A stretch of DNA of 64,000 nucleotides from the sequence record PZ445526.1; one strand, written 5' to 3'. Below, one piece after another: positions 4,633-43,648 of this stretch. The stretch's first letter is position 1, and each line of letters begins with the position of its first letter. The notes under the pieces are model-generated. The model made no database searches, had not been told where the DNA came from, and saw only the letters and a program-made list of their open reading frames with translations. This DNA is from a phage. Made by a program: the position numbers and the translations under genes.

Positions 4633-5196
4633 TTACCATTCCAATGCTAGTTTTTTGAGTTGTTTCTGTTCTTTTACGTTCTTAGTCACTTCTTTTAAAA
4701 AATCATCCGTGACTAAACCTTTTAGTTCTTTTAATACTAAAGGAAGTTTTCCATTTTTAGTAAGAATTGATTTATAGTTAATTGCATCATTTGTATTAAC
4801 TTGATACCGCTTAGCAAGTAACTTAATAATCAATACTTCGGTGGAATCTTCAACCAGTTTTGCCCATTTACCATATCTTTTACCACGAGGAACTGCAGCC
4901 ATCAGATAATTAAAATGAGCTTCATCACTTAAACCTGATCCAATTAAATTCATAGCATATACAGCTGGCATGCACTCTGGAAATTGTGATAATGCATTCT
5001 CAACCATGTATTTTGAATAATCTTTTTGAGCAATAGAGCATTTAGTTTTATTATTAATAGCTCCAATTATTTCAAAAAATTCATTTTCAGCTTTTTCTTT
5101 AAAAGAATCAGCAGCGGATTGGACAGCTGTCCAATCTTTTGAATACCAAGCAACTTGATGCTCGTTTAATTGAATATCATCTTCAAATAAGCTCAT
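4633..5196 (-). CDS. 62: clamp-loader small subunit
   Basis: Start at internal ATG ([18 protein letters not shown]...), 187 aa; overlaps gene 44 stop; T4 gp62-like. Confidence 0.85.
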
Positions 5197-5197
5197 A

Positions 5198-6157
5198 TCA
5201 CTTCCACTGCATTTCACATGCCAATTGAATGAAAAGATATGCTAAATGTAATTCAGTATTAGCTGCAATACCATGATACTGATTATTTTCACCAACAATT
5301 TCATACATACGAATAATACTTTGCGGAGTTACACGTGAATAGATTTCTTCGGCAAGTTTACCCACGAACCACGAATAATCAGCTGCATATTTTGGTGCTA
5401 AAGCTCTGAGTTGTTTAACATCTTTATTTTTGAGAGACTCAAGAACATCATCAATAGCACCACGATCGTTAGTAACCAGTGATAAAATACCAGCATCCAA
5501 AACACCTTTAGATGAATAACTATCGAGTTCGCCAATAGTTTTACGAAAATCAGGAAAATTCTTTTTAACCAAAGCTGCTACAACTTTCATATCAGCTATA
5601 GCAATTCCTTCATGCTTACAGATTTCAGTCAATCGACGAATCATCTGCTTCATCATTTCAATTTTATCTTCATCGGTCGGTTGACCGAATGTAATAACTC
5701 GGCAGCGTGACTGAAGAGGTTTAATAATACCATCAATATTGTTAGCAGTAATAATAATACTACAGTTTGAACTATAAGCTTCCATAAAGGAACGAAGATG
5801 TCGCTGAGACTCTGCTAATCCTGAACGGTCAAATTCATCAATAACGATTACTTTTTGACGACCATCAAATGAAGCTGCACTGGCAAAATTAGTCAAAGGA
5901 CCACGAACGAAATCAATTTTACAGTCTGATCCATTCACAAACATCATATCAGCATTTACATCATGACACAATGCTTTCGCTACAGTTGTTTTACCTGTTC
6001 CTGGAGAAGGAGAATGAAGAATAATATGTGGAATCTTACCTTTACTTGTAATAGATTTAAAGGTTTCTTTATCAAAGGCGGGAAGAATACATTCATCGAT
6101 AGTAGATGGACGATATTTCTGTTCAAGAATGTGTTCTTTTTCATTTACGGTAATCAT
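5198..6157 (-). CDS. 44: clamp-loader ATPase (AAA+)
   Basis: Start at internal ATG ([17 protein letters not shown]...), 319 aa; Walker A SPGTGKTT, Walker [12 protein letters not shown] motif; T4 gp44-like. Confidence 0.92.
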
Positions 6158-6190
6158 AATTTCCTCATTCAAGTTTTAGTGTAAATTATA

Positions 6191-6207
6191 AAGGGCCGAA
6201 GCCCTTT
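6191..6207 (-). terminator. UUCG-tetraloop hairpin between genes 45 and 44
   Basis: Minus-sense AAAGGGCUUCGGCCCUUU followed by a U/A-rich tract, immediately after the gene 45 stop. Confidence 0.55.
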
Positions 6208-6208
6208 A

Positions 6209-6895
6209 TTAAAAATCGTGGGTAGAATCAGCTTCAAGAGCTACTACATAATTCGCATGTTCACCTTCAAATTTAGCAGCACCTTGTTTACCTTTTGCCC
6301 AGAGCAGAAGTTTATAATTTCCTGGTTGCATTTTCATATTTGCCATATTGATAATGAAATTAAATGTATTTTCACCATCATAATCACCAAGAGTCAAAGA
6401 ATATTTAACACGGGTCAGAGCAGAATCTTCTACTTTATTAAAACCGTTAATTACGATTTTACCTTCTTTTACCGTGATAGCAATTGTATCAATTTGCAGA
6501 CCACGAGATACACGCAACAGTTGTTGAAGGTCTTCAGCTTTAATTTCAGTAACAACAGATGCTACCGGGAATGGAATTGGTTTATTAGGAGCAACTACTG
6601 TGCTCGGATCGGCTGCTGGCCAAAAAATTGTTGAGCGGGCATCAGCAATTTTAATATTTCCATCTTCTGACTGGGAAATTTCTGCATCATCATTAACTAG
6701 AGACAGAATACCGAGAAAACCGTTCAAATCGTAAATTGCTACATCAAAATCAATAACGTCAGAAATATTTGCTTCCGCATAAGTTGTACCATTAACTGCG
6801 CGAGTCATAATAAATTGACCGGATTTAAGCATAATACCGGAGTTAATAGTAGCGAAATTTTTAAGCAGAGCAGTAGTATCTTTAGACAGTTTCAT
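6209..6895 (-). CDS. 45: sliding clamp (processivity factor)
   Basis: 228-aa ORF MKLSKDTTALLKNFATINSGIMLKSGQFIMTRAVNGTTY...; T4 gp45-like in size, sequence and position. Confidence 0.92.
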   Translation of the reverse strand: MKLSKDTTALLKNFATINSGIMLKSGQFIMTRAVNGTTYAEANISDVIDFDVAIYDLNGFLGILSLVNDDAEISQSEDGNIKIADARSTIFWPAADPSTVVAPNKPIPFPVASVVTEIKAEDLQQLLRVSRGLQIDTIAITVKEGKIVINGFNKVEDSALTRVKYSLTLGDYDGENTFNFIINMANMKMQPGNYKLLLWAKGKQGAAKFEGEHANYVVALEADSTHDF

Positions 6896-18958: not shown

Positions 18959-19444
18959 TCAAGTATTGTAAAACATTTGATGCAATCGCTTATATTGCCG
19001 AATCTTTTGGTCAGAAAAAGAAATTTGAGTTTCAAGCCATTCAATGTACTCTGCGGCAGCTTGCATTAAATTTCCTTCATAACCATCGTTATTTTCTTGT
19101 GCAGCTAATTTAGCTAATGCATATGAAATGCGTTCACCTTGAAAAGCGGCTTTAGGTTTATGAATAGCTTGATCAACTCGTTCTACGACTTCTTCAATTT
19201 CGCCATTTTCTACTGATTCAGTATTCCACAAACACCAATACGTAATTGGCTTATCGTAGATGTTAATAATCTTTCCATCAGAAAGTTCAATTTCAATAAT
19301 TCCAGTATCAGGTTCTATATCATCTTCACATTCTTTTGCAAGTTCACGAACTTTAAAGACAGTACCTGCACTAAGTTCCGGCCAGTAATTACATAGCCCT
19401 GTATCAGCACGATTAATTCTAAACCACTTATCTACTGTAATCAT
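18959..19444 (-). CDS. pin: Pin-like protein (possible protease inhibitor)
   Basis: Track ORF 18959..19462; ATG at 19444 (MITVDKWFRINRADTG...) gives 161 aa, the size I recall for T4 Pin; assignment by position and size only. Confidence 0.45.
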   Translation of the reverse strand: MITVDKWFRINRADTGLCNYWPELSAGTVFKVRELAKECEDDIEPDTGIIEIELSDGKIINIYDKPITYWCLWNTESVENGEIEEVVERVDQAIHKPKAAFQGERISYALAKLAAQENNDGYEGNLMQAAAEYIEWLETQISFSDQKIRQYKRLHQMFYNT

Positions 19445-19583
19445 GTCCCATCTCCATATCAATTAAGTCATTTATCGTTGGTTCATTATATACTGTTTCT
19501 TCATCAGTGTAAACCGGTTCTTCCGGCTCTGGCTCTACAGTTTCCCATCTAGCCGCCCACCAAGGTTTTATAGCGTAATCCAT
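19428..19583 (-). CDS. possible small acidic protein (51 aa)
   Basis: ATG at 19581-19583 (MDYAIKPWWAARWETVEPEPEEPVYTDEE...); overlaps both neighbours; below the ORF-track threshold. Confidence 0.3.
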   Translation of the reverse strand: MDYAIKPWWAARWETVEPEPEEPVYTDEETVYNEPTINDLIDMEMGHDYSR

Positions 19584-19888
19584 TCTCGTACTGTCTGAAT
19601 TACTACACGTTCTCGAAGCTCAACCAGTTCAACAGTAGGAACTGCATAATACCAGTCAGAATGGTAAGAACCTGAGCGAGATTCATTTACGGAAACATAT
19701 ACGTGGTGTTTTGAGCTAAAGTAAATTACTCGACGATATTGGCATTTGCCTTGTTGAGTCCATTCTTCGGATTCAATCGGAATAAGATAGTCGGAAAAAT
19801 CGAAATCATAGTTTTCCGAAAATGCATCATGGTCTTCGATGATTTCACTCAGAATTGCATCAACATCTAATTTATTTTCAATAGTCAT
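19568..19888 (-). CDS. hypothetical protein
   Basis: 106-aa track ORF. Confidence 0.5.
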   Translation of the reverse strand: MTIENKLDVDAILSEIIEDHDAFSENYDFDFSDYLIPIESEEWTQQGKCQYRRVIYFSSKHHVYVSVNESRSGSYHSDWYYAVPTVELVELRERVVIQTVREWITL

Positions 19889-19899
19889 TTTTTCACCAA

Positions 19900-20109
19900 T
19901 TAATTTCGCAATTTATTAAGTTCTTCATAATCAATCCAGGATTCTAATCCTGATGGCAAATCAGATTCAATTTCCCAAAGAAGCTCTTCAATTTTCTGAA
20001 GACGATCTAGTTCTTCAGCTGGAATAGTAACCATTGATGGAGTTCTTGATACACTAATATCGTAAATCATATTTACCCCAGTTTGACCATGCAATCGCCG
20101 TATTTCCAC
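19900..20109 (-). CDS. hypothetical protein
   Basis: 69-aa track ORF. Confidence 0.5.
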   Translation of the reverse strand: MEIRRLHGQTGVNMIYDISVSRTPSMVTIPAEELDRLQKIEELLWEIESDLPSGLESWIDYEELNKLRN

Positions 20110-20288
20110 TTAGAAATAGACTTTTCACCATTAGAATAATAAACTTCGAGTTTAGCACGATTATTTTTAATTTGAATAACCTTGGCTGTCATCAAAGTTC
20201 CATACCCATAGTAAACTGCAACTTCATCACCTACATATACCGCGCTTCCGCGGTAATCATGGATATAATCAGTTCCTTCAAGCATCAT
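20073..20288 (-). CDS. hypothetical protein
   Basis: 71-aa track ORF, ATGA-type overlap with the nrdC start region. Confidence 0.5.
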   Translation of the reverse strand: MMLEGTDYIHDYRGSAVYVGDEVAVYYGYGTLMTAKVIQIKNNRAKLEVYYSNGEKSISKWKYGDCMVKLG

Positions 20289-20548
20289 TTAAAGTATTCC
20301 CGCAATTGGTCAAATCCACCAATATGACTTCCATCAGGAGCAAATACCTGAGGCATCGTCAGTCCAATTTGAGTATCACGACCTAGTTTAGTCAGAAGCT
20401 CAGCGATTTTCTCATCATCAAAAACACCTTTTTCCGGCATAATGTTGATAAATTCAAATGGCTGTTTCTTCACGGTCAAAAGACGTTTTGCATTATCGCA
20501 ATACACACATTTATGGATGTTGCTATCATAACCATATACTTTAAACAT
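20285..20548 (-). CDS. nrdC: thioredoxin (glutaredoxin-like)
   Basis: 87-aa ORF MFKVYGYDSNIHKCVYCDNAKRLL... with CVYC active site; matches T4 thioredoxin. Confidence 0.85.
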   Translation of the reverse strand: MFKVYGYDSNIHKCVYCDNAKRLLTVKKQPFEFINIMPEKGVFDDEKIAELLTKLGRDTQIGLTMPQVFAPDGSHIGGFDQLREYFK

Positions 20549-20549
20549 A

Positions 20550-20792
20550 TTATTCCTTAATTCCTAGTACTTGTTTAAAAGTCTCGTCGTAATCAAGACT
20601 TTGGCCCGTTTGTTCTTTATGTTTGTATATAATATCACTTACTTCTGATAGCATATTTTTATATGAACGAGTTAAAGCAGATTTAAGCACGCTGTATCTA
20701 TCAGGAAATTTACCATGTTCATTATAATAAGCTATTGCTAATTCACGGACTGCCTTTTCAGCAGTCTCCATATATTCTTTACGCTTGGTCAT
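20550..20792 (-). CDS. hypothetical protein
   Basis: Track ORF 20550..20933; internal ATG at 20792 ([29 protein letters not shown]...) fits a small overlap with the upstream gene. Confidence 0.45.
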
Positions 20793-21093
20793 TTTCTTCT
20801 CGGTCAAATCGGTGTTTACAATGGCGACATTTATAACGAAGATTATTAGTCTGCCAATGGACCAATTGCACCTGTTCAGTTCCACATTCAGGGCAATTAG
20901 GAACGTTTTTAGAAGCCCTTTCGCGACGTTCAACCATGACCATTACAGAATCCCAATTAATAGGGCTGCTATAATCATCACAACCGTGAATCTTTCCACG
21001 CATTTCCAGATCGTCTTCTTCACCAGCCATAATAATTTTAATTAGACTAGAATTACTTGAAGCTGCAATGTCTTCTAATAGACGCTTTTTCAT
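20779..21093 (-). CDS. zinc-ribbon protein, hypothetical
   Basis: 104-aa ORF with CPECG...C..C four-cysteine cluster ([28 protein letters not shown]). Confidence 0.5.
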
Positions 21094-22016
21094 TTCAATA
21101 CCTCAATAGCATTACGTAAACCATTTGCTTTTGCATTAAGAGCTTTTAACAATTTGGTGTGTTCTGCAATTTGGGCTTCAACTTCAATCAAACGAGCATT
21201 GAGATATTCGCGTTCTTCTTTCATAGTATCATTCCCATGATTGGATTTTGGTGTAGGTTTAAATTCACTAGGGTCCTTTAATTTAATAACAAATTTAGTT
21301 TCAAACAGTGAAAGACCATAATTCGTATTATCATCAAAGGATTTGACTACATCCATATCAGATAATAACACGCGTAAATTATAAGCCAAAGAACTAATAG
21401 TTTCATTGTGTTTATTAGCTTCGCGTGGTTTCATATACGGAAGATTTTTATATATCTCGTGCGGAGCACAAATGATAATTGACAATTCAAATTGCCCATT
21501 CTGGGACGATGGAGTGAATTTAGCCGTAACCCAGTCTTTTACATTCACATTAATAGTACGGTTATCACCATGACAAAACAGTCTACGAGAATGCTTAAAA
21601 AGCATATTCACGTTATTATTGAATTCGTGTGAAAATTCACTAGCAAATTTTTCTTTACTATCTTTAGAAAACCATTCTTCTAAATAAGTTCTTTTCACGT
21701 CGTTAATAATATTAAATGTAACAACACTAGCATTTGATACATTAGTCTCAATGTAGCTTGGATACATAAATTTTTTAACATTATTAACAGCTATCACAGA
21801 AGATAGTAATCGGGAACGTTTGAACCACTCGAGCAAAGAACCAAGAGAATGTGAATACGCATTTTGTGTATCTTTACAAATATGGTTTTCCCATCCAATA
21901 TAGTCTAAAAAATCACGAAGAATATTATTGATTACTGCTCTGTGTCCTATCTGATAATTACGATGTTTAGTAATAAGACTGTCAAAATAATCAATATAAT
22001 GTTTACGAGTTTTCAT
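21090..22016 (-). CDS. hypothetical protein with C-terminal coiled coil (308 aa)
   Basis: Globular N-terminal region plus C-terminal heptad-like tail ([42 protein letters not shown]). Confidence 0.6.
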   Translation of the reverse strand: MKTRKHYIDYFDSLITKHRNYQIGHRAVINNILRDFLDYIGWENHICKDTQNAYSHSLGSLLEWFKRSRLLSSVIAVNNVKKFMYPSYIETNVSNASVVTFNIINDVKRTYLEEWFSKDSKEKFASEFSHEFNNNVNMLFKHSRRLFCHGDNRTINVNVKDWVTAKFTPSSQNGQFELSIIICAPHEIYKNLPYMKPREANKHNETISSLAYNLRVLLSDMDVVKSFDDNTNYGLSLFETKFVIKLKDPSEFKPTPKSNHGNDTMKEEREYLNARLIEVEAQIAEHTKLLKALNAKANGLRNAIEVLK

Positions 22017-22070
22017 GTTCTTCTCACTTGGTTAATGATTTATACTCCGAGCCATCCTTGGCTTTAAATT

Positions 22071-23072
22071 TTACTTAATTAACTGTAAAGCTTGTTCCAG
22101 ACGATCAAGACGATTAACAGATTCTTCCCAAATCCTTTTAGCCTGCTCATATTCTTTCTGCGCTTTATTAGAAATTTCTAGAACTTCTTTATAAGCTTTT
22201 TCTAATGCAATAACTTCTGGACGAATTTCTATCGGTTCAGGTGAATCATCAAGACATTCCATTAGTTCCTCAAGGGTAGTTTCTTCTTTAGGAGTATTCA
22301 CAATTTCATCACATTTTTGTTGGTAAATTTCTTTATCAGTAGGTGAGTACGCGCACTTTACTTCACGAAGACTAATTACAATTTTATATCCTTCCCAACC
22401 GCATATATTCTTAAAAGGATAAGTATGAATATTTTCTACTGTTTCCATACAAAGTAATGCGGTCTCTAATTGACGAGTTATAGTGCTAGCAATTGAGAAA
22501 AATTTATTAATATTCTTTTGGTTAGTTTCTGGTGTAAAAAATCCATAATTCACAAAAATAGATACTTTATTTTTATCAAGTTCATATTCTTTTATGATAA
22601 TCATATCAGAAGCCAAAGGATGAATTTGACGATAATCGCCATAACATAATTTAGAAGCTGATTTTAGAATCTGTCCTTTGAAAAGTCTGAAATTACTAAT
22701 CCAACGACGAGTAAAAATATTCTCAGGGTCTTCTTTATTATTAAGATGATAAGAATTAACATCACCGAACCAATTATATCCTACTACATCTTTGGTTCGT
22801 TTAATTTCTTTCCCAAAATTACCAAGAATATCCCGATTAACCAAATATGAAAGAAGACGAGACTCTTTAAAGGTTTTCTTGATAACATCTTTATCTACAC
22901 GGCTAGAAATTTTACGAATTTCATGAATAAATTTAGTAGAAGAAACAATACTTGCATCAACACTATTGAGCCATTGATTGATAATAGAAAGAACGCTATT
23001 TTGGCCAAACATCGGTATAGCTTTATCATCAATAACGCTATTGAATGATTTGATATATTCGTTACGAGTCAT
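22071..23072 (-). CDS. hypothetical protein with C-terminal coiled coil (333 aa)
   Basis: ATG at 23072 (MTRNEYIKSF...); the track ORF extends into the promoter from a non-ATG start; C-terminal tail KEYEQAKRIWEESVNRLDRLEQALQLIK. Confidence 0.6.
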   Translation of the reverse strand: MTRNEYIKSFNSVIDDKAIPMFGQNSVLSIINQWLNSVDASIVSSTKFIHEIRKISSRVDKDVIKKTFKESRLLSYLVNRDILGNFGKEIKRTKDVVGYNWFGDVNSYHLNNKEDPENIFTRRWISNFRLFKGQILKSASKLCYGDYRQIHPLASDMIIIKEYELDKNKVSIFVNYGFFTPETNQKNINKFFSIASTITRQLETALLCMETVENIHTYPFKNICGWEGYKIVISLREVKCAYSPTDKEIYQQKCDEIVNTPKEETTLEELMECLDDSPEPIEIRPEVIALEKAYKEVLEISNKAQKEYEQAKRIWEESVNRLDRLEQALQLIK

Positions 23073-23129
23073 ATTAATCTCCTCAGTAGAAAGTAAGAAC
23101 ATTATACCACATCCTTGTGGCAAAGTAAA

Positions 23130-24158
23130 CTAGTTCAGTGCATTTAGTGCATTGTTCAGTTTAGAACGTTGCTTTGTCAGATTTTGAACCCTTGACTGAG
23201 CTTGTTTTAACACCTTTTCAGCTTCTAACACTTCATTAGTTGCTTTAACGAGTTCAGCATCTACTGCTTTAAGAGACTTCTCAATCGCATCTGCATGCCA
23301 TTTTTCAACAGGTTTAAGACTCGGATTTTCAATAGGAAGAAAATTCACTTTATTGAATTTCCATGCATCCTTATTACCTGAACTATACATCCAAAATTTA
23401 GGATCGTTTGATAAGTAATTGGATAAATTTAAATTTAAGTTATCTTGTACTTCTTGCTTTTTCTCTTGTGTAACTTCGTCCTTTCTCAAAAAATCATATT
23501 TAAATGAAACAATCATATCAAGTTCATATGATGTTGTATCTAACTTAAATCGTTCAAAACGAGGTAAAATCTTAGATTGAACAGCAGCAACAACATCCAT
23601 ATACTTAAATGCTTCTGTCAACTGTGATTTAAGGCATTCACAAATTGAAAGAGAATTTTTTGTATTAGGTTTAAAGCTAATTCGTGCAGTTCTATTATTT
23701 TCTTTTAACGGTCTTACTTCCATCTGAAGAGTATAACCATCAAATTTCAGGTTCTTTAAGTTAATATCAGAACCTTTTAATCGACTTGCTGTGGACAAAA
23801 TTTGCTTTAATTGTTTACGGAATAGAGCAATAAATCTCCATTCAAGACGATAATGATTTGGATTAAAAAATCCTGTTGATAAATCGACCTTACTTTGACC
23901 AACGCCTTGAACAAATAGAGGATTTTTATAATCAATAGTTTTACAGAAATCGGTGAGCTGTTCACGAGCAGTCATTTGCGTAATATACCCTGCTTTACTA
24001 AAATTACGCACCCATTCACTGCTATTCGTATACTTAAAGTGATGAATAACACGATTAACTTTATCAGGGTCTAAATTATTTTCACACAAAAATGTCATAA
24101 CATCACGAGTATAGCTGGCATTACGAACCATATCTTCAATTTGAGAACGAGTTTTCAT
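23130..24158 (-). CDS. hypothetical protein with C-terminal coiled coil (342 aa)
   Basis: C-terminal tail AELVKATNEVLEAEKVLKQAQSRVQNLTKQRSKLNNALNALN. Confidence 0.6.
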   Translation of the reverse strand: MKTRSQIEDMVRNASYTRDVMTFLCENNLDPDKVNRVIHHFKYTNSSEWVRNFSKAGYITQMTAREQLTDFCKTIDYKNPLFVQGVGQSKVDLSTGFFNPNHYRLEWRFIALFRKQLKQILSTASRLKGSDINLKNLKFDGYTLQMEVRPLKENNRTARISFKPNTKNSLSICECLKSQLTEAFKYMDVVAAVQSKILPRFERFKLDTTSYELDMIVSFKYDFLRKDEVTQEKKQEVQDNLNLNLSNYLSNDPKFWMYSSGNKDAWKFNKVNFLPIENPSLKPVEKWHADAIEKSLKAVDAELVKATNEVLEAEKVLKQAQSRVQNLTKQRSKLNNALNALN

Positions 24159-24166
24159 GGTGTTCC

Positions 24167-25072
24167 TTAAGATTTAAGTAAATCAACAATTTTAATTAAT
24201 TTTTCACGTTCAGATTTAGCTTTACTACTCAATCCGGATAGTCTAAAGATTTCATCGTCATATTGTTGAATAGAAATATTCAGCTCTTCAATTTGCTTAT
24301 TAAAATAATCAATTTGTTCAGAATGTTTTTCGTTACTACGAACTGGTACATGGTTTGTAGGCAATTTAGTTAAACTGGATTCATCCGGGCGATAAATTAA
24401 AATACAACTTGAACCAATCGGACATTTAGCACCAGACACATATTCTAATGTTCCAGCTTCTTTTAAAATTTCAAAAGCTAAACAGAGATGATGACCCATA
24501 TTGGCATAATCTGTAGAGTGAGCTCTGACGTAATAATCATCTCCACGAGTGCTAAATTTAAAGCATTTAAGGTCTTCTGTATTATTAGTTTTAAAAATCA
24601 TTTGTTTATCTAGACCTTTAGCCAATCGAGCGCCTAATGCTAATAATCGTCGTTGATTTTCCCACAAATCCGCAATCATTTGATCGAATGATAATTTCGG
24701 CATTAGTCGGCCATAAAGGTCATATCCTTTATTATAATTGCGAAGGATTTCACTCGCATTAATGCGAGACAACGCTCCAATTTTATTAAGGGCTTTCATG
24801 ATGCGATTAGATAAACTCATTCCAGACCCGTTTGTTCGCTGTAAATGTTTTTCTAATCCAAATCCAATATCAACTTTAAATTTATCTAAAATTTTGGCAT
24901 GAACGTCTCTGTCAATAACATTCAAATCCAAAGTTGGGTTAAATCTATGAAAAAATTTATCTGGCTCTCCACGACGAAATACAGTCCATTCATTCATCAT
25001 TTTTTTATTAACTAAAGATTTAATTACTGCATTGACATTATTAATTACTACTGACATATTTTCCTCACTCAA
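24167..25072 (-). CDS. hypothetical protein with C-terminal coiled coil (301 aa)
   Basis: C-terminal tail QIEELNISIQQYDDEIFRLSGLSSKAKSEREKLIKIVDLLKS. Confidence 0.6.
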   Translation of the reverse strand: MSEENMSVVINNVNAVIKSLVNKKMMNEWTVFRRGEPDKFFHRFNPTLDLNVIDRDVHAKILDKFKVDIGFGLEKHLQRTNGSGMSLSNRIMKALNKIGALSRINASEILRNYNKGYDLYGRLMPKLSFDQMIADLWENQRRLLALGARLAKGLDKQMIFKTNNTEDLKCFKFSTRGDDYYVRAHSTDYANMGHHLCLAFEILKEAGTLEYVSGAKCPIGSSCILIYRPDESSLTKLPTNHVPVRSNEKHSEQIDYFNKQIEELNISIQQYDDEIFRLSGLSSKAKSEREKLIKIVDLLKS

Positions 25073-25466
25073 TTTTACTAATTACGCGGAATAAGATTGA
25101 ACAGACTATATAAGTACCACATATAGATTGAACTAATGCCATTCCAAAGAACCAAACAATATTATCAAACCATGTCTGTTTTACGTCGAAAGGACGTAAA
25201 CTTACAGTAATATTATCACCTTTTTCTATTGAAGAATACATCTCTGGTGAAATATATTCACTAAATCTATAACCGTCTTTGAGTTCATATACAGCAATAA
25301 ACGATAAACTAGACCCCTTTCCTTGAGTTCCTGTAAGGGTATTAACTACAGTAACATCATAATCTTTATAATGCATATAATCATTAATTGCGTAATAACC
25401 ATATGCAATTACTATACATAAACAACATATCAATAAATTCAATCTTTTAATTATCAACTGTTTCAT
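25065..25466 (-). CDS. membrane protein (N- and C-terminal hydrophobic segments flanking a soluble domain)
   Basis: 133-aa ORF: hydrophobic segment LLICCLCIVIAYGYYAI, then a soluble region, then WFFGMALVQSICGTYIVCSILF. Confidence 0.5.
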   Translation of the reverse strand: MKQLIIKRLNLLICCLCIVIAYGYYAINDYMHYKDYDVTVVNTLTGTQGKGSSLSFIAVYELKDGYRFSEYISPEMYSSIEKGDNITVSLRPFDVKQTWFDNIVWFFGMALVQSICGTYIVCSILFRVISKIE

Positions 25467-25521
25467 AATAATCTCAATTAAAAGGGCTTAGAACCATTAT
25501 ACCATCCTTGGTATAAAGCGG

Positions 25522-26049
25522 TTATGCGAGTACCGTCTTTAACCGTTCTTCAAACTTCCGAAGAGTATTTTGGCGTTCAGCTCTTTGCTTTTTGTAAGTT
25601 TCAATACGCTCTGAAATGAGAGTGTATCGTTCATTTACTGATTCTTTCATAAAATCAGGAATTTCACGAGAAGCTTTAATCTCGTCAAATTTATCAATAA
25701 CAGCTTGCTCTTCAGCAATTAAGTTATCATACATCAAAATATCTTTCTTGATGAACTCAATATCTTCTTGAGTTACGCGAGATAATTTAGATGCTTTATC
25801 CTTTTTGTACTGTTCGTTAGTATCACGAGACCAGTGTAATGTACGATTTTTATTCGTATTCTTGTAAATTTCTACAATACCAATCTCATCAATAATAACG
25901 ATCCAATTCCAACGGGATTTGTAAATTTGTCCTCCGTCAACCGTGATTTCACCTCCGATTGAGATGTCATTAAAGAACTTGCTTTGTGCTTCAGATTTAA
26001 ATTTACCATCATTGTAGTTTACCAAGTTGAAAATATCTTTAGCATTCAT
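25522..26049 (-). CDS. hypothetical protein
   Basis: ATG at 26049 (MNAKDIFNLVNYNDGKF...); the track ORF extends through the upstream early promoter. Confidence 0.55.
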   Translation of the reverse strand: MNAKDIFNLVNYNDGKFKSEAQSKFFNDISIGGEITVDGGQIYKSRWNWIVIIDEIGIVEIYKNTNKNRTLHWSRDTNEQYKKDKASKLSRVTQEDIEFIKKDILMYDNLIAEEQAVIDKFDEIKASREIPDFMKESVNERYTLISERIETYKKQRAERQNTLRKFEERLKTVLA

Positions 26050-26077
26050 TTTCTGTTCCTCCGTAGTTGATAGTTGT

Positions 26078-26107
26078 ATAGTACCACAGAGGAACGGTCT
26101 TGTAAAC
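26078..26107 (-). promoter_or_regulatory. T4-type early promoter
   Basis: Sense GTTTACAAGACCGTTCCTCTGTGGTACTAT plus the conserved leader ACAACTATCAACTAC. Confidence 0.6.
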
Positions 26108-26109
26108 AA

Positions 26110-26424
26110 CTAAAAGAAACTTCTTTCACAATTTTTTCCACTAAACCATGCGCTAACCGCTTTCTTAGTCTCAGGAGCAGTGTTATCCATAAACCATTCA
26201 AAAGCAGCCTTTTTATGATTCTGGAGGGCTTCTCGGGCTTTAATCTGCTCACGGTCTATTAACACTAACATATGAGCCTTTCTTGTCACCAGGGGCTTCT
26301 TATGATTTTTTGAATATTCCCAATCATTTGTCCATCGCATCGTTGTTGCGAATTGAAGTACAGCTTCTTTAATCTTAGTTTCGTAAATTTCACGAGCCTT
26401 TGAGTATAACATCATTACCTCCAT
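26110..26424 (-). CDS. hypothetical protein
   Basis: 104-aa track ORF. Confidence 0.5.
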   Translation of the reverse strand: MEVMMLYSKAREIYETKIKEAVLQFATTMRWTNDWEYSKNHKKPLVTRKAHMLVLIDREQIKAREALQNHKKAAFEWFMDNTAPETKKAVSAWFSGKNCERSFF

Positions 26425-26513
26425 TTACTAGTTTAATTCTAGTCATCTTTTTGATGGCAGTCCATATAATCTATTTCTGAACTGCCTTTTTGTCATAGAA
26501 GTCCTCTTATGAA

Positions 26514-27482
26514 TTATTTCAGAAGAGTAACCTCAGCGATTTCTTCCCAACCGTTTTTGTCGGTCATAATAAAGTCAGCAAGATAAAGAGCAGTACGCAG
26601 TGAAACATTGCGTAAACGATTAACATTGACTTTCATCCATGATAATGCTTTATAAGTTTCTTCATCAGAAAGACCGCGCTTTTGCATCATGTCGGTTGAA
26701 AGAATAACATCTTCAACCCTGACCATAATTTCTTCATTAGTGTGAACACCCAAATCCAAATAAACTGAGCGGGACACTAATGCTTGTAAATGTGGAGCAA
26801 GTTTAGTACCACGGTCTAATTCGCGGTCAATGTCAACGTTTGTGATAAAAACAATCGTTCCTTTAAATTCAAACTCACGCTCAATGCCTTTTTCTTCTAA
26901 GTAAGAAGATGCAGTGCTCCAGCAGACTTTACGGGTCTCTCCAGTGTCCAGAGCAGCTTTCAGAAGATTAAGAATGTCCATATCAGAGAAAACATCCACA
27001 TCATCAATCAAAAGGACAGAATTCTCTTCACGATTATTCCAAAGCTGTTCATAAAGACCAATACCAGAGATTTTACCATTAATGCTTTTATATTCAATGT
27101 ATCCAATATCATTTGCTTTATTTAAAGCTTTATCTAAAGAATACGTTTTACCAATACCCGCCGCACCAGAGATAATTAATGAACGAATGTTTCCGTTAAT
27201 AATACCATTCGTCATCATTCCCATAACATTAAATCTTTTATTAATGCGGGTTTTCATATCTTCATATGATTCTTTAACTTCTTCAACTTTTACACCATCA
27301 TATGAAATGTCTGATTTGTAAACCCAAACACCGCGACGTTTACCGTCAATTTCAACAAAAACTTTACCATCTCCTTGTGCATCTACCGGAGCATTATCTG
27401 GGAACCATTCACCTAAGAGCTCAAAAGTTCCAGAGATTTCTTTACCGAAGTAGATACCCTTATTGATAGTTACAGTTTTCAT
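26514..27482 (-). CDS. P-loop NTPase (AAA-like), hypothetical
   Basis: ATG at 27482 (MKTVTINKGIYFG...); Walker A GAAGIGKT and Walker B LLIDDVD after an N-terminal domain of about 120 aa. Confidence 0.6.
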   Translation of the reverse strand: MKTVTINKGIYFGKEISGTFELLGEWFPDNAPVDAQGDGKVFVEIDGKRRGVWVYKSDISYDGVKVEEVKESYEDMKTRINKRFNVMGMMTNGIINGNIRSLIISGAAGIGKTYSLDKALNKANDIGYIEYKSINGKISGIGLYEQLWNNREENSVLLIDDVDVFSDMDILNLLKAALDTGETRKVCWSTASSYLEEKGIEREFEFKGTIVFITNVDIDRELDRGTKLAPHLQALVSRSVYLDLGVHTNEEIMVRVEDVILSTDMMQKRGLSDEETYKALSWMKVNVNRLRNVSLRTALYLADFIMTDKNGWEEIAEVTLLK

Positions 27483-27516
27483 TTTATTCTCCAAATCCGT
27501 ATCAGTTGATAGTTGT

Positions 27517-27546
27517 ATAGTACCATAAAGCTTTATGCTTGTAAAC
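27517..27546 (-). promoter_or_regulatory. T4-type early promoter
   Basis: Sense GTTTACAAGCATAAAGCTTTATGGTACTAT plus conserved leader ACAACTATCAACTGATACGGATTTGGAGAAT before the ATG at 27482. Confidence 0.6.
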
Positions 27547-27574
27547 CGTTTTGTGAAAAAATTTTGAAATAAAA

Positions 27575-27594
27575 AGGGAGCCCGAAGGCTCCCT
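27575..27594 (-). terminator. terminator hairpin (UUCG-type loop) downstream of ORF 27596..28609
   Basis: Minus-sense AGGGAGCCUUCGGGCUCCCU followed by UUUUUAUUU; an early promoter follows directly. Confidence 0.6.
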
Positions 27595-27595
27595 A

Positions 27596-28609
27596 TCATT
27601 TATAATAACTTCGGTGGTTTTCAAGATAGACCTTCTCAAGGAAGTCATCCCAGAAACCCATGTCTACTTTTTGCTGCATACCGTTCTTAGAAGCTTCAGT
27701 AGATGCTGCTTCTACTTGATCGACCACATCTTCCAAAAACTCTTGAACTGTTTTAAATGGATGTTTACCCAACTTCACGTCGAGAATAAATGGAGCATCT
27801 TGGAGTGGATAAACCAAGTCACCAGTTTTGTAAATTTCCAATAGTTGAAGTCCACCACGACAAGCATGGCTCAGAGCTTTCCAGTCAATACCTTCATTGG
27901 CTTCGGCCTTACGAGCACGTTCACCGTATTCAGCATCTAATTTGTTCAGTGACTGCTTAAGCTCAATAAGAGAAAGCGTTGTCTGATATTTACGACCCAA
28001 CACAGTGTAGAACGTTTGTGGGCCTGTTTTCTCATGATTATGGAACACCCATTCACAGAATTCGTTTTCTGGAAGACGATGCTTAATATCTTCAACTTTA
28101 GTACGACGCTGCTTAATGGAACCGTCTTCTTGGTAATCAACCCATTGCTCAGGGATTTGATTAACTACTTTCAATACATCGCGTAATGCAGCCAAACGAG
28201 AACCCTTGACACCGTATTTAGAAGCTTGCTTGCGAACATATCCTAAATAGGATTTCATGTTAGTCGTATAAAAACGAGAACGGTTGTCTTGAATAAACTT
28301 CCACACATCAGGCAAATCAGATTTAACCACTAGTTCAGGTGGAGTGTGAAGCATATCCAATGCTACAGTTTCACCATCTGCTGCTAATTTAAAGAAATAT
28401 TTAAGACTGTATAGTTCATGGTCAATATCATCTTTAGTGTTTTTAGATGATGTGTTGTTAGTGTTTTTACTCATGTGCTCTTTAACATTTCCAATAAGAA
28501 TATCACGAGCAGGAGGAACAAAGATTTCTTTAAAATCTACATCAGATTCTAGAGTAGAAGTTCCATAAAGATGACTACCAAAATAGCTTTTCATTACTGT
28601 TTTCATCAT
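27596..28609 (-). CDS. nucleotidyltransferase-fold protein (Pol-beta-like), hypothetical
   Basis: 337-aa ORF; N-terminal hG[GS]-x10-DxD pattern (FGSHLYGTSTLESDVDF) typical of minimal nucleotidyltransferases; the rest is uncharacterized. Confidence 0.55.
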   Translation of the reverse strand: MMKTVMKSYFGSHLYGTSTLESDVDFKEIFVPPARDILIGNVKEHMSKNTNNTSSKNTKDDIDHELYSLKYFFKLAADGETVALDMLHTPPELVVKSDLPDVWKFIQDNRSRFYTTNMKSYLGYVRKQASKYGVKGSRLAALRDVLKVVNQIPEQWVDYQEDGSIKQRRTKVEDIKHRLPENEFCEWVFHNHEKTGPQTFYTVLGRKYQTTLSLIELKQSLNKLDAEYGERARKAEANEGIDWKALSHACRGGLQLLEIYKTGDLVYPLQDAPFILDVKLGKHPFKTVQEFLEDVVDQVEAASTEASKNGMQQKVDMGFWDDFLEKVYLENHRSYYK

Positions 28610-29067
28610 TCAGCCTTATATTCAATAACAGGACATACTTTAGCTTTACGAGCTTTTAAAAATTCAACGATAACCGATTTCTTGGGTTGAATAGGAGGTA
28701 AACCTTTATACGCCCTATCAATATTTTCTACGTGTAAAGCATAATCCTTTTTCCATTTATAATCTTTATATTTTTCACGCAAATGTGCAGGAATAACAAA
28801 TGAACCGATAATAAGTAAAACAACCAAAAGCGCAAGTATAAATGCTGATGGAAGCAAAGTCCATAAACTACCAAAAATAATCCAACGCTGTAGGCTTTCT
28901 GCACAAATAATTGTTAGCCCTACGAGTATAGCACATCCAAAAATAGAAACGAAAAATGTAGGAATGGCAATAGACCAAAAATATGCGCATAGTGTCTTAG
29001 GTCGTTGCCATTCATCGTTAAACAATTTGAATAATTTATAGTGCCAAGAGTTTTCATTAATAATCAT
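28606..29067 (-). CDS. membrane protein, hypothetical
   Basis: 153-aa ORF with three predicted hydrophobic segments. Confidence 0.55.
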   Translation of the reverse strand: MIINENSWHYKLFKLFNDEWQRPKTLCAYFWSIAIPTFFVSIFGCAILVGLTIICAESLQRWIIFGSLWTLLPSAFILALLVVLLIIGSFVIPAHLREKYKDYKWKKDYALHVENIDRAYKGLPPIQPKKSVIVEFLKARKAKVCPVIEYKAE

Positions 29068-35487: not shown

Positions 35488-35808
35488 TTATTCTTTAAAT
35501 CTAATCAATTTATTCATAGACTTTGAAACTTCTGCACGAACCTCATGTAGATTTTTGAGTTGTTCAAGACGCTGCGCATAGTAAGCAATTTCATCTTCTT
35601 CGAGACAGTCCTGCGAATCTTCTTTAAGATAACGTGCATAGTCCTGGAAAGCGTTACGGACTACTTCCTGGAAGTCATCAAGACTTTGAATTTTCTTAGG
35701 AGCAACAGACACACGACGAGGGGCAGTATAATACTCATAACCAAACCCTGCGCTTAATTGAGCCATTAGTATTTTTCCTCTGGTTGGAACACTGCGCGAC
35801 AAGCCCAC
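35488..35808 (-). CDS. hypothetical protein
   Basis: 106-aa track ORF. Confidence 0.5.
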
Positions 35809-41696: not shown

Positions 41697-42290
41697 TTAT
41701 TTCAGAGAATTAATGTATTCCTGAACATCGGCAGAGGTAGTTTCAACCCCAGAAATATTACCATTAAAGGTTTCAACTCGAGCGAGAGTGTCTTCAATAT
41801 CAACCTTAGTCAGTGCTGCAATTTCAACTACATCATCGGCAGTACTAATTCCAAGTGCATTCGCTGCTCGAGTTTCACGGATATATTCCAATTTAACTGC
41901 AAGTTCTTGGCGAGCATCATCCAATTCAACTACTTTCTTGGCGATTTCAATTCGCATTTCAGCATACCCATCAGCTTTAGTAGTTAACTGTTCAGCTGTT
42001 CGACGATATAGCAAGCCGAGTTTAGCATGCATTGTTACATCTTGACCTTCAGAAAGAAGCTTGCGAATTTCACGCTCTTTTGATTCGGCCTGTCGATTCT
42101 TTTCGACAATAAGTTCACGAATACGTTTTTCTTCATTAATAGATTTAACAGAAGCAGTTTTTAGGTCTTTAATTTTATCAAGCAGTTTTGCTGCTGCGGC
42201 AGTATACTGTTCTTCAACAGATAGATTTTTAGCCATAGCAGAACCAAGTTTAGTGCGAATAAACTCAACAATTTTCTTCAGTGTGTTCAT
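41697..42290 (-). CDS. coiled-coil protein, PspA/IM30-like (tentative)
   Basis: 197 aa, predicted largely alpha-helical coiled coil, architecture reminiscent of phage shock protein A; similarity not verified. Confidence 0.45.
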
Positions 42291-43081: not shown

Positions 43082-43648
43082 TTATTTGCTTAGTTTAGTT
43101 ATTATAGCTTCTGCGGCAGCTTTTAGCTTAGATGCGGTGTTAATACGATTTTTAATTTCAGTATACGCATCGCCAAGAACATCAAGGCTATCAGAATAAA
43201 CACTTACACTATTGCGTTCGCTATTTGAAATAGAACCTTTAGTTTTACGATCAAAATCGGTGTATACGTCTTGAAGATCGCGTGCTGCCTTCTTTGCATC
43301 ATCCAATGCATCAAGAGCTTTATTCAAAGCATTAACGTATTTTTTAGTATCGAACATATTCTTAGAAATTTTAACAGGCGCACGTTCAGGAGTAGCTAAG
43401 GCAGATTTAGGAAGAACCTGTTTGCCAGATGCCAGTTTCTTAGAAATTTTGAAAAACGCTTTATTGAAATTATTTTCTTGACTCATCGTAAAAGAACTAT
43501 TATCAATGTTATACATTTCAATAGCTTTAGCTTTCCACTTAAGAAAATCGCCACGGTCTTTTGGGTCCAAGTGGAAGAATACTTTAGTAAGATCTGCTTC
43601 AGATGGTAATTTTGCTGCTTCGGTTAAAAATTCGGCATAGGTTTTCAT
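43082..43648 (-). CDS. internal-protein-like gene with capsid targeting sequence (188 aa)
   Basis: N-terminus MKTYAEFLTEA (capsid-targeting-like, LxE cleavage context); the payload is not recognized. Confidence 0.6.
   Translation of the reverse strand: MKTYAEFLTEAAKLPSEADLTKVFFHLDPKDRGDFLKWKAKAIEMYNIDNSSFTMSQENNFNKAFFKISKKLASGKQVLPKSALATPERAPVKISKNMFDTKKYVNALNKALDALDDAKKAARDLQDVYTDFDRKTKGSISNSERNSVSVYSDSLDVLGDAYTEIKNRINTASKLKAAAEAIITKLSK

Follow-up and report, generated by a model that had tools for sequence, protein, structure and literature searches.

Four tandem nrdC genes of a T4-like phage appear to be whole-length paralogs and include candidate inhibitors of host immunity

The nrdC.3 to nrdC.6 array and the closest described systems

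The best-described relative of the genes considered here is nrdC.5 of phage T4, an early gene that overcomes the Dsr1 sirtuin defense and that alone, supplied from a plasmid, enables a deletion mutant to plate again on dsr1+ cells (Srikant, Guegler and Laub 2022, PMC9391042). The Dsr1 protein, a SIR2 NADase, recognizes phage major capsid proteins through a TPR-like sensor (PMC13581612, PMC12803255). Here we analyze nrdC.3, nrdC.4, nrdC.5, and nrdC.6, four adjacent genes within a 64,000-nucleotide (nt) stretch of the phage sequence record PZ445526.1, hereafter the window. The NrdC.5 protein of the window is the ortholog of T4 NrdC.5 (DUF7235), with 97% identity and the same position, whereas NrdC.3, NrdC.4, and NrdC.6 are, by profile comparison, its paralogs, with the same predicted architecture yet less than 25% identity to NrdC.5 and membership in other Pfam and PHROG families. 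We propose, with a probability of about 0.6, that the array is an expanded set of oligomeric inhibitors of host immune proteins that diverged from one ancestral gene.

A working analogy is offered by DSAD1, the phage inhibitor of DSR2 (PMC10973363, PMC11087589, PMC10981675), which neutralizes a defense-associated sirtuin NADase; no sequence or fold similarity to the solved DSAD1 structures was found. Single-gene inhibitors of host systems also occur in the same early, non-essential, and variable region, which extends from gene 49 to nrdC.11: nrdC.1 is an anti-Septu gene (bioRxiv 10.1101/2025.11.20.689424), 49.2 is an anti-OLD gene (PMC13096335), and pin carries a protease inhibitor annotation, with host Lon as the target in related phages. 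In contrast to the array, these three genes encode small proteins, are not among the matches of our family hidden Markov models (HMMs) in the window, and form no paralog array. The array genes themselves are already known T4 open reading frames (ORFs), one of them with a published function, and in the searchable literature we found no paper that treats NrdC.3 to NrdC.6 as one family or gives a function for NrdC.3, NrdC.4, or NrdC.6.

The phage is a T4-like Tequatrovirus. A nucleotide search with the ∼4.2 kilobases (kb) around the array gave 97.9% identity to Escherichia phage BF15 and 95.8% to T4, and the region is present in about 500 Tequatrovirus records; the T4 record annotates NrdC.4 and NrdC.5 alongside NrdC.1, NrdC.2, and the thioredoxin NrdC. 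A first-pass annotation, made from the letters of the window alone, had picked out four tightly packed co-directional ORFs, and all of them are present on the minus strand. By position and identity they are nrdC.3 (21090..22016; 308 amino acids [aa], 91% identity to T4 NrdC.3), nrdC.4 (22071..23072; 333 aa), nrdC.5 (23130..24158; 342 aa), and nrdC.6 (24167..25057; 296 aa). The intergenic gaps are 54, 57, and 8 nt, in agreement with the packing described. Only the start of nrdC.6 needed revision. The TTG at 25072 would yield a 301-aa protein; the ATG at 25057 is most likely the actual start, because a GAGG Shine-Dalgarno sequence lies 7 nt upstream of it and the resulting gene length agrees with the 891-nt T4 nrdC.6 of the annotation used by a 2025 preprint. 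Plus-strand ORFs in the block encode 51 to 86 aa and overlap the long minus-strand ORFs and are therefore unlikely to be genes, and an Rfam scan of positions 19000-29000 returned no RNA family. A search for DNA repeats in the block found nothing beyond a 19-nt stretch that recurs at the start codons of nrdC.3 and nrdC.5, so the duplication is old.

Relatedness and modeled fold of the four proteins

We looked for relatedness between the four proteins, with NrdC.8 included as a fifth, by pairwise BLASTP. The best match was between NrdC.3 and NrdC.4 (E = 0.003), and no tail matched another tail. This near-silence accounts for the impression, recorded in the first-pass annotation, that the N-terminal 250 to 300 residues differ from one protein to the next, but we regard pairwise BLASTP as too insensitive here rather than as counting against homology. 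Indeed, NrdC.3 (E = 3.6e-101) and NrdC.4 (E = 6.6e-169) both match phrog_1435 over its full length (1-334 of 334); among the paralogs, NrdC.3 is closest to NrdC.4. NrdC.5 covers the whole of DUF7235 (PF23882; model positions 1-307 of 307, E = 4e-125, 417.7 bits against a cut-off of 30), and NrdC.6 matches phrog_2257. All NrdC.4 homologues carry the label PF26897.1; this family was absent among the Pfam hits of the window proteins, so the label was not confirmed directly. Apart from DUF7235 and coiled-coil noise, searches against Pfam, NCBIfam, and PDB sequences returned nothing.

We then built family profiles from orthologs found in IMG/VR loci, by protein searches, and in annotated phage records, and compared them with hhalign. 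With shallow profiles, only the NrdC.3-NrdC.4 alignment reached significance; the others were weak and in a consistent register. They became significant once the profiles had been enriched with RB69, with the proteins P0141 and P0142, and with a family from PM2 and Kanagawavirus. NrdC.3 and NrdC.4 then aligned with an hhalign probability of 98.6% (E = 7.5e-16) and NrdC.3 and NrdC.5 with one of 70%, while NrdC.4 and NrdC.5 aligned with a probability of 82.6% (E = 9.7e-6) over 248 columns (residues 66-332 versus 51-341), the tail included. NrdC.6 was joined through the PM2/Kanagawavirus family, a single gene of 309 to 337 aa located directly upstream of nrdC.2 in Pectobacterium phage PM2 and in the Kanagawavirus phages IME523 and PEi20. 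The alignment probabilities of this bridging family were 95.5% with NrdC.6 (E = 1.5e-8), 68% with NrdC.4, and 69% with NrdC.5, and its HMM, run against the 92 ORFs of the window, matched NrdC.6 (E = 3.4e-8) and NrdC.5 (E = 1.7e-5) and none else. NrdC.3, NrdC.4, and NrdC.5 also have an N-terminal M(K)TRxEY motif in common. An HMMER search with the NrdC.3/NrdC.4 profile gave no bridge to NrdC.5 or NrdC.6.

Structure predictions pointed in the same direction. AlphaFold2 models were obtained for NrdC.4 (mean predicted local distance difference test [pLDDT] score, 80.9) and NrdC.5 (73.8), from alignments of 15 and 18 homologues, respectively. In the NrdC.4 model, an N-terminal helical part (residues 3-84) precedes an alpha/beta core (88-235), a linker (∼259-284), and a tail helix (285-332); the NrdC.5 model has the same architecture, with its linker at 228-283 and its tail helix at 284-341. 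The order of elements is identical in both: helices, three strands, a long helix, a hairpin, a second long helix, a second hairpin, a disordered linker, and a final long helix. Foldseek searches of BFVD led from both models to the same four uncharacterized Straboviridae proteins of 309 to 374 aa (E = 1e-8 to 2e-4), from Erwinia phage Cronus, PM2, Serratia phage CBH8, and Yersinia phage fHe-Yen9-01, and the PM2 protein is also a match of the NrdC.6 HMM. The NrdC.4 model additionally matched proteins of Acinetobacter, Enterobacter, Klebsiella, and Aeromonas phages at 10 to 19% identity. The common plan begins with a helical N-terminal region and a two-layer alpha/beta core and continues with a flexible linker of 25 to 55 residues and an amphipathic heptad helix of 45 to 58 residues, as modeled for NrdC.4 and NrdC.5 and as expected from homology for NrdC.3 and NrdC.6.

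Profile and structure links therefore join all four proteins in a single superfamily, and we conclude from the alignments and models that they are whole-length paralogs descended from one ancestral gene. The gene family that the first-pass annotation had offered as one possibility is borne out more strongly than it was put forward, through the hhalign links, the bridging family, and the models. Its picture of distinct N-terminal domains carrying a shared C-terminal module is not, since the bodies are homologous as well.

Many GenBank phage records call NrdC.3 to NrdC.6 "thioredoxin," and in one the name is "Mur ligase domain-containing protein"; neither domain could be detected. None of the four proteins has a thioredoxin or glutaredoxin match in Pfam or NCBIfam, and the modeled folds of NrdC.4 and NrdC.5 differ from these. 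We therefore rejected a role in nucleotide metabolism or as thioredoxins, as gene names and GenBank labels would have it, for want of domain support in Pfam and NCBIfam. The "thioredoxin" label seems to have spread from the neighboring nrdC gene.

C-terminal heptad tails and variation of the array

The C-terminal tails were scored with a heptad heuristic of our own (not COILS) in 28-residue windows and compared with shuffles of the same protein. The best windows of all four proteins lie inside the last 50 to 60 residues and keep a single register; their scores exceed the 95th percentile of the shuffle maxima, with 0 to 3.5% of shuffles reaching them. The tails map, on the minus strand, to 21093..21230 in NrdC.3 (∼residues 263-308), 22074..22220 in NrdC.4 (residues 285-333), 23133..23309 in NrdC.5 (residues 284-342), and 24170..24322 in NrdC.6 (residues 251-301 when numbered over 301 aa; SGLSS may interrupt it). 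For NrdC.4 and NrdC.5, AlphaFold2 also predicts an unbroken tail helix, of 48 and 58 residues, behind a linker with pLDDT below 50. The tails therefore appear to hold at least four heptads in a continuous helix, the heptads by our heuristic and the helix as modeled for NrdC.4 and NrdC.5. The heptad-like helical tails described in the first-pass annotation stand, although their length is 45 to 58 residues and not about 40. Their weak database matches were to classical coiled coils alone (Smc, keratin 5, EmrA, the CENP-F zipper, SNARE, and the TolA-binding trimerization domain).

Within each family the tail is the best-conserved segment, with consensus fractions of 0.92, 0.81, 0.53, and 0.76 versus 0.41 to 0.87 elsewhere, and hydrophobic positions are conserved at a spacing of 3 to 4. 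In NrdC.3 no other segment is as conserved. Between families, the tails are alike in little except the hydrophobic pattern, such as #..##.##. in the closing ten residues of NrdC.3, NrdC.4, and NrdC.5. Tail-only profile comparisons gave P = 0.001 to 0.26, being too short to prove tail homology alone, and we therefore argue tail homology from the collinear whole-protein alignments. Taken together, the heptad pattern, the modeled long helices, and the high conservation within each family make an oligomerization or docking module a plausible role for the tail.

By the same heuristic, about 9 of the 93 putative genes of the window encode such a tail, and random gene orders would place four tail-positive genes side by side in 0.4% of cases. 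The score cut-off was 8.0, with NrdC.6 counted through its best window (residues 246-273, score 8.5), as its extreme C-terminal window (7.25) falls below that value. Heptad-like C-terminal helices also occur in Pin and three other ORFs (18959-19444, 35488-35766, 41697-42290, and 43082-43648, all on the minus strand), and small early proteins of T4 may often end in this way. NrdC.8 (25522-26052, minus strand; 176 aa), two genes upstream of the array, has a similar tail (best window, residues 145-172), which the first-pass annotation had overlooked, and its identity across genera, 57 to 69%, makes it better conserved than NrdC.3 to NrdC.6. We considered NrdC.8 as a fifth family member and rejected it, hhalign giving no profile link and the tail type being all that it has in common with the others.

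We then examined the array across Straboviridae. The number of copies is one in PM2, Kanagawavirus, and an Acinetobacter phage, three in RB69 and in the loci L007-L015, and four in the window; the T-even phages of E. coli have three or four. Single copies in the more distant genera occupy the same position, just upstream of nrdC.2 or nrdC, as a long ORF with a heptad tail. In Acinetobacter phage Maestro, for example, a 335-aa ORF with a heptad tail lies at the syntenic position; compared as a single sequence, it showed no profile link to NrdC.3 to NrdC.6. The gene order nrdC.8, nrdC.6, nrdC.5, nrdC.4, nrdC.2, nrdC.1, nrdC is kept in diverged T-even loci, which have the NrdC.4 type without NrdC.3, while RB69 has the NrdC.3 type without NrdC.4, and the phage of the window has both, as does T4. 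Jiaodavirus KPV15 and Aeromonas phage 44RR2.8t lack an ORF of similar size in the interval. The 44RR2.8t interval between nrdC.11 and gene 49 (4800-6254 of locus L019) instead holds a nicotinamide phosphoribosyltransferase gene, which suggests a different answer to NAD+-depleting defenses at the same locus.

Divergence of the four proteins is high for the region. Across genera, NrdC.11 retains 75 to 82% identity and NrdC 83 to 87%; NrdC.6 falls to about 43%, NrdC.4 to 39 to 50%, and NrdC.5 to 21 to 26%. Within Tequatrovirus, NrdC.3 exists as two alleles that are ∼62% identical, the immediate neighbors on the nrdC.4-nrdC.11 side being about 90 to 100% identical. The alpha/beta core is the most variable part in the NrdC.3 and NrdC.4 families, and an exhaustive HMMER search with the NrdC.3/NrdC.4 profile recovered just 10 cluster representatives among 1.84 billion proteins. 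NrdC.2 (20779-21093, minus strand; 104 aa, zinc-ribbon-like) is another hypervariable gene, with 46 to 64% identity among several Tequatroviruses in which nrdC.1 and nrdC are ∼99 to 100% identical.

Fusions and deletions occur in the array. In a 299-aa protein (P0119) found on 3 contigs of up to 167 kb, residues 146-272 of NrdC.5 are fused to the C-terminal half of NrdC.3 at a short common KVN/NVN stretch, and nrdC.4 is deleted. The annotated nrdC.5 of RB69 (AY303349, ∼4650-4800 of locus L020) encodes 300 aa without a tail. Right at the end of this gene, a different frame encodes a typical tail (...VELDKAQAKLRDAQSVVTNLQLQYSKLFNAMNALKS), which makes this a frameshift, either real or a sequencing error. 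Decay within the array is seen in phage Pinarejo (H65), where only residues 255-301 of NrdC.6, the tail, are left, and in a Tequatrovirus locus from IMG/VR (L006, 6971-8003), where nrdC.4 is split into two ORFs.

Consensus matching revealed promoter-like sites on the minus strand. A T4-early-type site precedes nrdC.4 (23101..23130; GTTTAC, 18 nt, TATAAT, and a TG extension), and another precedes nrdC.3 (22039..22068; TTTAAA, 18 nt, TATAAA). A third, before nrdC.7 (25496..25518), could, to judge from spacing, drive nrdC.7, nrdC.6, and nrdC.5, which are separated by 7 and 8 nt and appear to be co-transcribed. In each of the three sites, the spacer holds a small hairpin, CCA(C)A-AGGA-TG(T)GG, a motif that occurs just 3 times on the minus strand of the 64-kb window; one of these sites was additionally flagged as terminator-like. 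Farther upstream, NrdC.10 (26514-27482, minus strand) has weak AAA/STAND-NTPase matches in Pfam, none of which reaches the gathering score; between nrdC.11 and nrdC.10, at 27575-27594, lies a strong GC-rich hairpin (8 base pairs, 6 of them GC), and NrdC.11 is annotated as a nucleotidyltransferase across Straboviridae.

Proposed counter-defense function and its alternatives

NrdC.3, NrdC.4, and NrdC.6 are good counter-defense candidates because disarming of a bacterial immune protein is established for their paralog NrdC.5. We infer such a role for the three proteins, and for the family direct binding to a host target and oligomerization through the tail. According to our proposal, an ancestral gene located just upstream of nrdC.2 or nrdC in Straboviridae would have been duplicated into a tandem array of accessory early genes, dispensable on the laboratory host, whose protein products would inhibit host anti-phage immune proteins stoichiometrically. 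Binding of the host target would fall to the globular body, which evolves fast; for NrdC.5 the target would be the SIR2 NADase Dsr1, so that NAD+ depletion would be prevented. The tail, conserved per family, would assemble each paralog into a homo-oligomer, and this could provide avidity against oligomeric defense proteins or block their assembly. Duplication and divergence would then widen the range of host defenses, or of defense alleles, that are neutralized. This picture is built on the common plan, the variable body and family-specific conserved tail, the early-type promoter-like sites, dispensability (nrdC.3 to nrdC.8 were scored non-essential in T4 on a laboratory host by transposon saturation), the changes in copy number, and one proven member.

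Several points weigh against this proposal. NrdC.5 alone has an experimentally supported role, and it may act by direct binding or in some other way. In one comparison available from HIDEN-SEQ, nrdC.3 to nrdC.6 had no significant fitness effect. The profiles are shallow and the links of NrdC.4 with NrdC.5, and of the bridging family with both, have moderate probabilities (68 to 83%); the structure models cover NrdC.4 and NrdC.5, and their Foldseek template modeling scores are low (0.17 to 0.5), owing to the flexible placement of the domains and of the long helix. Our coiled-coil assignment is based on our own heuristic and on monomer models, and the long tail helix could instead bind the target or fold back on the body. 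Finally, other accessory roles, host takeover for one, would likewise account for fast divergence and dispensability.

That last point leads to the alternative that survives best, although we consider it unlikely: NrdC.3, NrdC.4, and NrdC.6 would be takeover factors acting on host transcription, translation, or metabolism, unrelated to immunity, with NrdC.5 alone recruited to counter-defense. The three genes are indeed early, non-essential, and without an assigned function. However, their rate of divergence, allelic replacement, and copy-number variation exceed those of neighboring accessory genes, and they are paralogs of a proven counter-defense gene and are located among others.

We give less credit to structural mimicry, an improbable reading in which the alpha/beta core would descend from a tail terminator or tail completion protein, or mimic one, and the early paralogs would serve as decoys, filling the host pattern-recognition sensors for conserved virion proteins. 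Foldseek did list "tail terminator" and "tail completion" entries for both models (E = 0.01 to 0.15), and sensors of the Avs/Dsr1 class recognize virion protein folds, the tail terminator included (PMC13581612, PMC12803255). But the same list contains RNA polymerase alpha/Rpb11, nitroreductases, and kinase lobes, for which reason the core may be a generic alpha/beta sandwich; no family member matched any Pfam tail family in sequence-profile searches, and the reported ligand of the Dsr1 sensor is the major capsid protein rather than the terminator. Similarity to the tail terminator and completion proteins (lambda gpU-like fold) appears to stay below a level that would imply homology, with no profile similarity, and unlike those proteins the NrdC proteins are early, are encoded outside the structural module, and have in addition a helical N-terminal part, a linker, and a coiled-coil-like tail. 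More speculative still, and quite doubtful, is the extension in which the superfamily would be an early, coiled-coil-oligomerized derivative of a tail-terminator-like virion fold, diversified by T-even phages into a panel of decoys, each plugging the ligand groove of a different sensor (Dsr1/Avs-type TPR) before the structural proteins are made.

We hold an equally poor opinion of the odds that the four proteins, perhaps with NrdC.8, are partners joined through similar tails in one hetero-oligomeric complex with a single function, as the first-pass annotation had also suggested. Five proteins encoded in a 5-kb co-directional block have heptad helices in the same register when counted from the C terminus, and the apparent co-transcription of nrdC.7, nrdC.6, and nrdC.5 would suit a complex. 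Yet related genera hold a single family member, close relatives differ in copy number and in alleles, the NrdC.3 and NrdC.4 types substitute for each other between genera, the tails are conserved within families and differ between them, NrdC.8 has no homology to the others, and NrdC.5 alone suffices against Dsr1 (PMC9391042). Chance, in the form of conserved T4 ORFs that are unrelated, have no C-terminal module in common, and all four acquired an amphipathic C-terminal helix by coincidence, deserves almost no credence: pairwise BLASTP is nearly empty and other window ORFs have heptad-like ends, but profile, HMM, and structure links join all four proteins, and a run of four tail-positive genes is as rare in random gene orders as described above.

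Few phage proteins are known to defeat a sirtuin NADase defense, and NrdC.5 is among them. Paralogy and architecture add to this a domain map for NrdC.5, with a variable body that is probably target-binding and a conserved tail that is probably oligomerizing, and they nominate three candidate counter-defense genes in the best-studied phage, while correcting the misleading "thioredoxin" labels carried by NrdC.3 to NrdC.6 in phage records. With a single-copy, ancestor-like gene elsewhere in Straboviridae, the array would be a natural case of expansion of a phage accessory gene family, one that can be compared with host defense repertoires.

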